Positions 55,047 to 56,452 of a stretch of 64,000 nt of DNA are shown one piece after another. Source of the stretch: Candidatus Bathyarchaeota archaeon. GTDB taxonomy: Archaea > Thermoproteota > Bathyarchaeia > Bathyarchaeales > Bathycorpusculaceae. The position numbers and the translations under genes were made by a program. The stretch is from positions 1 through 64,000 of the forward strand of contig CAWGYA010000001.1 of NCBI GenBank assembly GCA_963826715.1, given 5' to 3'. Positions within the stretch are counted from its first letter, which is position 1, and each line of letters starts with the position of its first letter. The notes under the pieces were generated by a model. That model had not been told where the DNA came from. It saw only the letters and a list, made by a program, of their open reading frames with translations, and did not search any database.

Positions 55047-55595
55047 TTAGAATCTTCGAAATCTTTGACGCCCGTTACGTTTGGATTTAGGTTTTCTCAA
55101 TCGTTCACCACACCTGGGGCAGTATGCTTTTCCGTCAGATACCACGAGATTTTCACCAGCTGACCAAAAATGGTTGTTTGGACACTGAAGGTCAAAATCG
55201 AAGGGTTGAGTTTCGTAATCTTGGGGGTGGGTAATTATGTCATCTTTGAGAGAACTATTACTTTTTATGATTTCAGTTTTCGGGTAAACTATAGCCGGTG
55301 CAAAAGGTTTAGTTTCTATTGATTTGGGCTCGGTAGCAGCTTTTACCTTGGCGATGACTCTTCTTGAGGCAATGCCATTAGTTACCTTAATTGGCTCAGG
55401 AGGAACAATAACTTTGGATGAAATATTATTTTCGAATTGGATAAATGGCTTTGTGACTTCATTCTGAATTTTGAATGGTTTATGTGCTCGCGGATTTTTG
55501 ATTTTTATTAGCGGCGCAGTAGTAGAGGTTCCGCATTGAGGGCACTTTTCGCTGTATTCGACGAGTCTTCGTCCGCATTTTCTGCAAAACGGCAT
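55047..55595 (-). CDS. Zn-ribbon protein
   Basis: N-terminal CRKCG..CPQCG and C-terminal CPNNH..CPRCG. Confidence 0.8.
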   Translation of the reverse strand: MPFCRKCGRRLVEYSEKCPQCGTSTTAPLIKIKNPRAHKPFKIQNEVTKPFIQFENNISSKVIVPPEPIKVTNGIASRRVIAKVKAATEPKSIETKPFAPAIVYPKTEIIKSNSSLKDDIITHPQDYETQPFDFDLQCPNNHFWSAGENLVVSDGKAYCPRCGERLRKPKSKRNGRQRFRRF

Positions 55596-55719
55596 ATTGT
55601 CACTTTAACTTTTTAGATAAGTGTTGATTTGGCTACCTTTAAACTTTAACCAAGAGGTATAAGCAAAATTGTTTTAAAGTACCTGAATGTTTAAAGGTTG
55701 ACAACGCAGTTTTTTTCAG

Positions 55720-55844
55720 GGTGGGCGATGACGAGTCTGGCCCCGCAGACAACTGGATGATGTGGATCTTGAGTGCGAACGACGGTGACGATGATAACTT
55801 CAGGCTTGACTTGAAAGTTTAGCCGCCGCCTCTAAGAGCTCACC
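55720..55844 (+). ncRNA. putative multi-guide box C/D sRNA
   Basis: GC-rich intergenic island, TTTAAAG TATA about 25 nt upstream, terminal stem GGTGGGC/GCTCACC, three GATGA boxes. Confidence 0.65.
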
Positions 55845-55873
55845 TAATGTTGCTCATATAAAAGAAGGAAGTT

Positions 55874-56452
55874 TTATCTTTTTTCCGGCGGGGTTTCCCA
55901 AAGCTGCATTTTCTGTTTTTTGAGCTCAGTACGTTTCTTCTGCAAGTAATTATAAACAGTATGATGTTCGCATCCGTCAATAATCATTTGGACAGCATTG
56001 CGTGCAGCGTCAGCTTGTTCGAAACTACCTATAATTCCGATAGTGTGACCATAAACTACAACATCAGCCTCAGTGAGTTCTTCTATAAGTTTTCTGGTTT
56101 TACCTTCGGTGCCTATAATTCTACCTTTGATGCGTTTAATATCGGATTCGCTGCGTCCAAAAATTAAACGTAGGTCAATCATGTCATAGATGTCATCTTC
56201 ATTTCTGATAAGCCGAAAAGCGGTTTCGGGTGGGAACCCTCTGCCTATGCCTAAAACGACATCTTTAGCTCTAAGGAACAGCGAGGGGTCTTTTGAATTT
56301 TCTCTAAGCATAATGCCAACGCTGCCTTCCGTTTCGATTTCCATTTTAACGTCGAGTTTATCTTCAATGTACTGTTTGGTTTTGCCGTCTGGACCAATTA
56401 AAATACCAACGCGTTCTTTAGGAATCTTTACAAATGTATCAGGACCAACCAT
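55874..56452 (-). CDS. KH-domain rRNA processing protein (Dim2/Pno1-like)
   Basis: LIGPDGKTK, GRGF, GRIIGTEGKTR, H.TVY. Confidence 0.92.
   Translation of the reverse strand: MVGPDTFVKIPKERVGILIGPDGKTKQYIEDKLDVKMEIETEGSVGIMLRENSKDPSLFLRAKDVVLGIGRGFPPETAFRLIRNEDDIYDMIDLRLIFGRSESDIKRIKGRIIGTEGKTRKLIEELTEADVVVYGHTIGIIGSFEQADAARNAVQMIIDGCEHHTVYNYLQKKRTELKKQKMQLWETPPEKR

Follow-up and report, generated by a model that had tools for sequence, protein, structure and literature searches.

A Bathyarchaeial box C/D small RNA with a predicted tRNA-Leu wobble guide and a hairpin inserted in box D

The locus and the layout of its RNA

The stretch of DNA considered here, referred to as the window, comprises 64,000 nucleotides (nt) of a Candidatus Bathyarchaeota archaeon (contig CAWGYA010000001.1, positions 1 to 64,000 of the forward strand). 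A gap of 278 nt between two minus-strand genes holds the positions 55690-55845, which an initial annotation had described as a double-length box C/D-like RNA with up to four fused guides. Comparative analysis of the locus favors, with a probability of roughly 70%, a different composition: a single box C/D small RNA (sRNA) of ~125 nt predicted length that would guide methylation of the wobble nucleotide of the transfer RNA (tRNA) for leucine, tRNA-Leu(CAA), and that carries a hairpin typical of the genus inserted in its box D. The gap and its flanks contain the following features.

55047-55595, minus strand: zinc-ribbon open reading frame
55690..55695, plus strand: TATA-like element TTTAAA, 30 nt 5' of the terminal stem; predicted promoter
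55720..55726, plus strand: terminal stem (C helix of the terminal kink-turn), 5' strand GGTGGGC; pairs with 55838-44
55727-29, plus strand: kink-turn bulge GAU
55728-34, plus strand: box C, AUGACGA, in the RUGAUGA register; the tandem G.A pairs use G55730 and A55731
55735..55745, plus strand: D' guide of 11 nt, GTCTGGCCCCG, with the invariant core TCTGGCCCC
55746..55749, plus strand: box D', CAGA (CUGA in most other lineages)
55750..55756, plus strand: K-loop of 7 nt between D' and C', varying in length and sequence among relatives
55757..55763, plus strand: box C', ATGATGT
55764..55775, plus strand: D guide of 12 nt, GGATCTTGAGTG, antisense to positions 31-41 of tRNA-Leu(CAA)
55776..55777, plus strand: CG, positions 4n and 3n, which open the ancestral box D YGGA and are separated here from its GA
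55778..55835, plus strand: lineage-specific insertion of 58 nt, a hairpin
55783-89/55822-28, 55796-98/55817-19 and 55799-804/55810-15, plus strand: helices of the insertion, with the apical loop at 55805-09
55836..55837, plus strand: GA of box D (AAGA together with 55834-35), abutting the terminal stem
55838..55844, plus strand: 3' strand of the terminal stem, GCTCACC
55872..55884, plus strand: T-rich stretch, TTTT then TTTTTT, 28-40 nt past the stem; possible terminator by sequence only
55874-56452, minus strand: KH-domain open reading frame, followed by the RIO1 and eIF-1A genes

The motifs on which the initial annotation was built are present. C-like motifs occur at 55725-31 (GCGATGA), 55754-60 (TGGATGA) and 55788-94 (ACGATGA) and D-like motifs at 55746-49 (CAGA), 55775-78 (GCGA), 55806-09 (TTGA, one base off its implied place) and 55834-37 (AAGA). 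A TATA element (TTTAAAGG, 55690-97) and the two strands of the terminal stem are found where they had been placed, and the two spacer complements that were quoted are correct reverse complements. The assignment of motifs to boxes was revised at three points. The functional box C is AUGACGA rather than GCGATGA and matches the RUGAUGA consensus at six of seven positions. The ancestral box D is YGGA directly after the guide rather than GCGA, whose A is not conserved (relatives read GCGC, GCGT, GCGG or GTGA), and TTGA is the apical loop of a hairpin. The register of the boxes was also derived from canonical relatives.

The terminal stem borders directly on GAUGA (5' side) and GA (3' side), so that a standard kink-turn can be drawn, in which G55730 and A55731 stand opposite A55837 and G55836. 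Its signature is present, with GA next to a stem of 7 base pairs (bp) and the three-nucleotide bulge GAU preceding the GA of box C. The spacing of the guides is canonical as well: the D' spacer measures 11 nt and the D spacer 12 nt up to the conserved YG, or 70 nt if the distance is taken to the terminal AAGA. The positions of box D are split in the window, YG (55776-77) and GA (55836-37) lying 58 nt apart and not forming a box contiguous with the guide. One terminal stem closes the whole RNA, which is predicted to be a single unit of ~125 nt, as had been proposed, and not two sRNAs of 60 nt.

General RNA models respond weakly to this sequence. At gathering thresholds, the search of the window with Rfam returned three tRNAs and no C/D family; in E-value mode the C/D families snoPyro_CD, sR1, sR11, sR23, sR39 and snoZ223 scored 9.6-14.8 bits against thresholds of 39-50, with E values of 2.5-7.8. 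The fold of the single sequence is no better than that of shuffled sequences (z = -0.24 and +1.07 for the two strands). In view of the negative Rfam result and the unremarkable fold, the sequence alone proves little and the decisive evidence is comparative.

The family in Bathyarchaeia and its inserted hairpin

The comparison set consisted of ~140 relatives. A 171-nt query was run against the host genome and 60 relatives (61 genomes). With a cut-off of E <= 1e-5, its first ~60 nt (55719-55779) had matches in 30 of the 36 genomes from the window's genus; of the 24 other genomes, which represent eleven further families of the order, 12 matched. Only seven close relatives aligned over the second half (55780-55847). 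Full-length copies were obtained from 30 genus loci and measure 106-140 nt; 28 of them make up the genus alignment, in which the terminal stem, ATGACGA, the spacer TCTGGCCCCG after one variable base, GATGAT and GGATCTTGAGTG are invariant or nearly so. The segment between Y-G and A-N-G-A differs in both sequence and length.

The terminal stem is kept in the 28 genus members and in the 11 sequences of a separate alignment of the window's subclade, with changes between G-C and G.U and one compensatory change from U-A to C-G (L030). Box D' reads [C/A/T]AGA in 28/28 genus members and CUGA, AUGA, ACGA or similar in other families, and the GATGAT of box C', invariant in the genus (28/28), is found as ATGAT or GTGAT in other lineages. 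Each of the 28 members continues after the D guide with a Y and then a G, the same two bases that open box D of the canonical forms, and each ends with A-N-G-A followed by the stem.

Outside the genus, 20 loci from other families were fetched; the 13 that passed the filter and were read all contain the sRNA, and the other seven were not read in detail. Twelve of these 13 are devoid of the insertion and show the order stem, AUGACGA (or AUGACAG), 11 nt, CUGA, loop, AUGAUNN, 12 nt, YGGA (or CUGA, CAGA) and stem. This canonical sRNA of 63-73 nt is the form present in most lineages. A pattern built from both guide cores was then scanned over one genome per prokaryotic species and gave at least 115 stretches, of which 80 loci were read and 62 parsed automatically. 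Nearly all of the 80 come from genomes titled Bathyarchaeia or Bathyarchaeota, and three Candidatus Bathycorpusculum species among them have the inserted form. The terminal GA abuts the stem in the 62 parsed loci, and box C is kept as [AG]TGA plus CGA, AGA or CAG in 110 of 110 parsed family members.

On this evidence the RNA is one predicted box C/D sRNA family widespread in Bathyarchaeia. The assignment to the box C/D type made in the initial annotation holds: the stem, the first two ATGA boxes, the first two spacers and the terminal GA are invariant or nearly invariant in the genus and recur in other families and in the loci read from the wider scan. A full-text literature search retrieved no paper on C/D sRNAs of Bathyarchaeota, which is not proof of absence.

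Two side observations concern the distribution of the family. Matches in three assemblies titled bacterial (L150, L165 and L201; Acidiferrales, Acidobacteriaceae and Xanthobacteraceae) probably lie on archaeal contigs contaminating the bins, and L150 is of the same type as the Bathyarchaeia matches. At L043 (G044 C24), the thirteenth of the other-family loci read, a tandem duplication has placed two copies of the tRNA-Leu guide ~47 nt apart, and the spacer between them includes both an additional ATGA box and a segment complementary to the guide; this may be a three-guide or self-pairing variant.

The insertion separates the YG that follows the second guide from the terminal GA of box D. It is a hairpin of variable length (31-67 nt), present in the window's genus and in some other lineages. 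Each of 30 genus members has an inserted segment of 31-66 nt that folds into one hairpin, closed near the two ends of the segment. RNAalifold analysis of the 11 subclade sequences gave 32 pairs, 8 of them with compensatory double changes, and all 8 lie in the insertion hairpin. Of the 62 parsed loci, 7 have 2 nt between guide and terminal GA, 20 have 3 nt, 7 have 4 nt and 2 have 5 nt, and the insertion is absent from these 36 forms of canonical length; the other 26 loci have 35-65 nt. Inspection by eye of the 18 unparsed loci adds 7, 3, 1 and 4 members to the 2-, 3-, 4-nt and long classes, with one more incomplete and two unreadable. A graded series of insert sizes is displayed by one and the same site, and the double length of the window's RNA is due to the inserted hairpin, not to extra guides.

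In 84 of the 120 distinct upstream regions compared across the family, a hexamer with at most one mismatch to TTTAWA begins between -33 and -29. The positional conservation of this TATA-like element supports an independent transcription unit. Downstream, the T-rich stretch overlaps the stop codon of the convergent KH gene and might act as an archaeal terminator. The neighbors aIF1A, Rio1 and KH protein named in the initial annotation are confirmed, and the link to a ribosome-biogenesis operon drawn from them is not sustained: of 29 genus loci, 12 have a KH gene and 13 the zinc-ribbon gene within 1.5 kb, and of 18 loci in other families, 1 has a KH gene within this distance. The neighborhood of the sRNA is loosely conserved, and no evidence for a functional tie to the aIF1A-Rio1-KH operon was seen in it.

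The two guides and their targets

Default runs of ARAGORN and Rfam list neither tRNA-Leu(CAA) nor tRNA-Leu(UAA) in the host. The host (genome G000) encodes tRNA-Leu(CAA) at C2:400566-400689 on the plus strand, with a canonical intron of 36 nt after position 37, in a gene that ARAGORN mislabels as tRNA-Ser(cga). The D guide forms 11 Watson-Crick bp with positions 31-41 of the spliced tRNA (N+2 to N+12, counted upstream of box D) and 10 bp plus one G.U pair with the precursor. A match of 11 bp was reached by 13 of 5000 shuffled guides in a search of 48 host RNAs (8567 nt). Counted from the ancestral box D (YG..), the nucleotide N+5 is G55771, which stands opposite C34 of tRNA-Leu(CAA). The initial annotation was right in describing the second spacer as antisense to the CAA anticodon loop; of the matches of the other spacers to host tRNAs and ribosomal RNAs (rRNAs), that of the first spacer is at chance level, with no match to the tRNA-Leu D-stem found in the host, and those of the third and fourth reach 9-10 bp and are not conserved.

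The D guide is invariant in 28/28 genus members, and GATCTTGAGTG is conserved across the order and the class, as is GGACTCAAGA of tRNA-Leu(CAA) across families. Since neither the guide nor its tRNA-Leu target varies, a covariation test is impossible. Position 34 of tRNA-Leu at N+5 is a target class already described in Pyrococcus (work of 2001 as summarised in PMC7994747).

The second isoacceptor, tRNA-Leu(UAA), is encoded on the minus strand at G000 C8:1147086-1147213 and contains an intron of ~39 nt in the D loop. This gene is missed by default ARAGORN and by the Rfam tRNA model; with its stringency lowered, ARAGORN reports the gene as 'caa' and assigns a wrong intron to it. A D-loop intron occurs in all 29 full-length tRNA-Leu(UAA) genes of relatives that were read (22 from the genus, 7 from other families). 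The annotation of the host tRNAs is corrected by these results, in that both UUR tRNA-Leu genes have introns and are missed or mislabelled by default tools. The D guide makes the same 11 pairs with the anticodon arm of tRNA-Leu(UAA), with a G.U pair at position 34, and the 13-nt arm GGACTTAAGATCC is found exactly in 48 of 61 genomes. A search of the host for a second sRNA with a guide of the UAA type found none. A strict regular expression for canonical C/D sRNAs gave 0 matches in the host, which says little because the boxes in this lineage are degenerate.

Further observations were made on host and relative tRNA genes. The 13-nt arm of tRNA-Leu(UAA) is repeated in several genomes, with three copies within 5 kb in G019 C41, three in G031 C3/C16, three in G035, two lying 68 nt apart in G015 C3, and several in G026, G004, G002 and G032. 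At L123, the copy of the arm comprises only the 3' part of the tRNA behind unrelated sequence, which suggests the remnant that elements integrating into the tRNA-Leu(UAA) gene would leave. The host tRNA-Trp gene (G000 C2:265292-265467, minus strand) has an intron of 84 nt. Inspected by eye, this intron shows an AUGACGA box identical to that of the sRNA and, after it, complementarity to the anticodon loop of tRNA-Trp; it has the appearance of the intron-encoded C/D guide described for Haloferax and Pyrococcus.

The D' guide is invariant in 28/28 genus members except for its first base (55735; G, C or T) and is retained in other families. The class-wide conservation of its core TCTGGCCCC indicates that it should be functional. 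Several candidate targets were considered and rejected. The large-subunit (LSU) rRNA of the host contains GGGGCCAGG (C8:1120798-1120806), which forms 9 bp with the guide (N+2 to N+10). Among 22 aligned LSUs, this segment is shared by 14 of the 16 from the genus; of the six from other families, five have AGGGCAAGG instead although the guides there are unchanged, and in G046, where the site is retained, the guide has diverged. The match could be due to chance or represent a secondary target specific to the genus. The LSU sites 894 and 2539 need two G.U pairs each and are variable. The 9-nt match GCCAGACTC in tRNA(CAU) uses bases of box C and would place G26, not C34, at N+5, with a mismatch at N+4 and the varying base 55735 included. 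As for perfect 9- or 10-mers, only four other GGGGCCAG[AG] sites exist in the host, all in long open frames; among 12 GGGGCCAGAG sites in five other genomes, three belong to the sRNA gene itself, and no flanks are shared among the others.

A last candidate is the intron of the tRNA-Leu(UAA) precursor. Its loop reads GGCCAGA in 26 of 27 genus genes, on a stem that covaries, and complements 7-8 nt of the D' guide (8 bp in the host). The motif is found in 0 of 7 genes from other families and the statistics are at chance level; this target is rejected and retained as speculation only. The D' guide is left as an orphan. A second guide with no obvious target has also been reported for Pyrobaculum sRNAs that target tRNAs (PMC7994747).

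Proposed mechanism, alternatives and known systems

The mechanism proposed here, from expression through assembly of the ribonucleoprotein (RNP) to methylation of a particular nucleotide, and likewise the geometry of the junction, is predicted from sequence. Transcription from its own TATA promoter would yield a single sRNA of ~125 nt, which would associate with L7Ae, Nop5 and fibrillarin to form a methylation-guide RNP. The host encodes these proteins: fibrillarin (PF01269, C2:288386-289066) and Nop5 (PF01798, C2:289407-290087) lie side by side, and two genes belong to the L7Ae family (PF01248, C8:427911-428183 and C2:390905-391180). The D guide (55764-75) would pair with the anticodon loop and the 3' anticodon stem of tRNA-Leu(CAA), so that the wobble nucleotide C34 faces the guide nucleotide five positions upstream of the ancestral box D and would be converted to the 2'-O-methylated form, Cm34. 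Through a G.U pair the same guide may act on U34 of tRNA-Leu(UAA).

The ancestor would have been a canonical sRNA of 63-73 nt, into which a hairpin was inserted on the box D strand between YG and GA. The YG is envisaged as still pairing with the CG of box C (3b, 4b), the extra bases, from one nucleotide to the whole hairpin, being extruded between 3n and 2n. The hairpin would then project from a three-way junction, with the register between guide and kink-turn kept. The pairing of 55733 with 55776 (4b-4n) was examined in 110 distinct sequences: G-C or G.U is present in 103 of the 104 with G, and A-U in five of the six with A. The five A-U sequences come from related lineages, so few independent events are represented. 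The invariance of YG in the inserted forms, the 4b-4n covariation and the single insertion site fit the model of extruded bases.

Several points weigh against a methylating guide of this design. The guide lies 60 nt from the GA of box D, and the usual fifth-nucleotide ruler, which refers to a contiguous box D, is not simply applicable. The commonest spacing among canonical-length forms is 3 nt (CGNGA, 20 of 62 parsed loci), which on a strict count would point to U33, not C34; the bulge or junction model is proposed to account for it. The A-N-G-A before the stem is itself conserved (28/28), so that AAGA could be an alternative box D with a displaced guide. The 3b-3n pair is a Watson-Crick C-G pair, and kink-turns of this kind do not fold in metal ions alone, according to the abstract of PMC4382518. 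In tRNA-Leu(UAA), the nucleotide to be methylated sits in a G.U pair, which may not permit the reaction. In Pyrococcus furiosus, C34 of tRNA-Leu(CAA) is a predicted C/D target that went undetected among the tRNAs analysed, as stated in PMC7668247. No convincing target of the D' guide was found among the host matches, an 8-bp match being reached by 2510 of 5000 shuffles. Finally, the best Rfam scores, 14.2 bits for snoPyro_CD and 14.8 bits for snoZ223, stay far below the threshold of 45 in both cases.

A more far-reaching interpretation, offered tentatively and with clearly less confidence than the wobble guide itself, is that a split box D is tolerated in a working guide: YG would remain by the guide, a bulge of 1-3 nt or a hairpin of 31-67 nt would precede GA, and the N+5 ruler would be unchanged. 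In this case the kink-turn would become a three-way junction, branching on its NC side, and would still be usable by L7Ae, Nop5 and fibrillarin. A bolder extension, restricted to the genus and equally tentative, has the D' guide clamping the D-loop intron of pre-tRNA-Leu(UAA) by 7-8 bp, as it may do while the D guide holds the anticodon loop.

Among the alternatives, the one that survives best, although it is rather improbable, is that the insertion has uncoupled the guide from box D. The genus RNA would then act without catalysis, as an antisense binder or a chaperone for tRNA-Leu or its unspliced precursors, or it would methylate a shifted position such as C32. The 60-nt distance to the terminal GA, the conserved A-N-G-A by the stem as a possible self-standing box D and the spacing of 2 to 5 nt even in short forms agree with this idea, as do the introns in both host UUR tRNA-Leu genes and the 7-8 nt match of the D' guide to the tRNA-Leu(UAA) intron loop within the genus. 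However, guide and YG are invariant in 28/28 inserted forms, as expected if the ancestral register and function persist, the pair 55733/55776 covaries, and the match to the intron is at chance level and does not extend to the seven introns outside the genus.

Markedly less probable is tRNA-Ala(UGC) as the true target of the D guide, alone or beside tRNA-Leu. This tRNA (C8:330185-330259) can form 12 bp, one of them G.U, between its positions 34-44 and 55767-78, with U39 near N+5; the pairing would explain the invariance of G55775 and Y55776, and the arm is conserved within the genus. The host match, however, uses the unconserved A55778, and G55765 and A55766 are explained by tRNA-Leu only. Since the arm changes outside the genus, to GCAAUCAGGA (5 genomes), GCAUCCAGGA (2) and GCACUCGGGA (2), and the guide does not, tRNA-Ala(UGC) is rejected as a conserved target.

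The fused double RNA with three C boxes and up to four guides can hardly be upheld, although [AG]TGA[TC] occurs in 11 of 11 subclade sequences and in 23 of 48 distinct inserted forms, and 8 of the 48 even have a strict full kink-turn signature inside the insertion: the window's copy has no such signature, its third ATGA box (55788-94) lies on the 5' strand of the insertion hairpin and has no GA partner, UAG preceding the basal helix, the other 25 inserted forms have no ATGA motif at all, and the third and fourth spacers are the two paired strands of this hairpin, which carry the compensatory changes and are not conserved beyond close relatives. The exciting idea of a four-guide archaeal sRNA is not supported.

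The prevailing view of archaeal C/D sRNAs is that of minimal rulers, ~60 nt long and rigid in their spacing. The graded series of 0, 1, 2, 3 and then 31-67 inserted nt beside an invariant guide constitutes a natural test of how strictly the distance from kink-turn to guide sets the methylated nucleotide. Should the intron clamp of the D' guide be true, wobble methylation would be coupled to intron removal. The Bathyarchaeia, abundant and uncultured, gain a class-wide conserved candidate guide for the modification of UUR leucine tRNAs.

With regard to known systems, sR-tMet of Haloferax volcanii is reportedly a C/D guide directed at anticodon-loop riboses of intron-containing pre-tRNAs. The Pyrococcus tRNA-Leu guide, as outlined in PMC7994747, shares with the window's RNA the box C/D architecture, one guide antisense to the anticodon loop and position 34 at N+5. 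It differs in belonging to another phylum-level lineage, and snoPyro_CD gives here only 14.2 bits against 45; moreover, in the window one guide could serve both UUR isoacceptors, and box D is split by the hairpin of 31-67 nt. The C/D guide in the tRNA-Trp intron (PMC7994747) is similar in addressing anticodon-loop riboses of intron-containing pre-tRNAs, as the window's guide pairs with both precursor and spliced tRNA-Leu(CAA). In contrast to it, the window's sRNA is a free-standing gene with its own predicted promoter and a structural insertion, and is not intron-encoded.

Long box C/D small nucleolar RNAs of eukaryotes, such as U3, U8 and U14, combine the C/D core with added helices and are well over the 60-nt minimum. 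Their insertions are usually located between D' and C' or in 5' domains, not between guide and box D, and archaeal sRNAs are normally minimal. A loose resemblance exists to the k-junction, in which a helix added on the non-bulged (box D) strand of a kink-turn gives a three-way junction (PMC10573300 and PMC4005666). Its third helix faces the bulge and is located where the G.A pairs meet the C helix, and L7Ae did not induce folding of the two k-junctions for which tests are reported in PMC10573300, those of the Arabidopsis thiamine pyrophosphate (TPP) riboswitch and of DUF-3268. The window's RNA departs from this definition: GA (55836-37) abuts the C helix (55838-44), and the inserted helix is 5' of GA, on the NC side. 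Since GA still abuts the C helix and the insertion is on the NC side, the face bound by L7Ae should stay free.

The same predicted product, a 2'-O-methylated nucleotide 34, is made by protein-only enzymes in other domains, the wobble ribose methyltransferase of UUR tRNA-Leu in bacteria being TrmL. Its counterpart in yeast is Trm7-Trm734 (PMC6847430). These enzymes recognise the tRNA directly and use no guide RNA, unlike the system predicted for the window. A C/D guide for the wobble position of UUR tRNA-Leu is known in kind; what the predicted RNA of the window adds is a structured insertion that interrupts box D.

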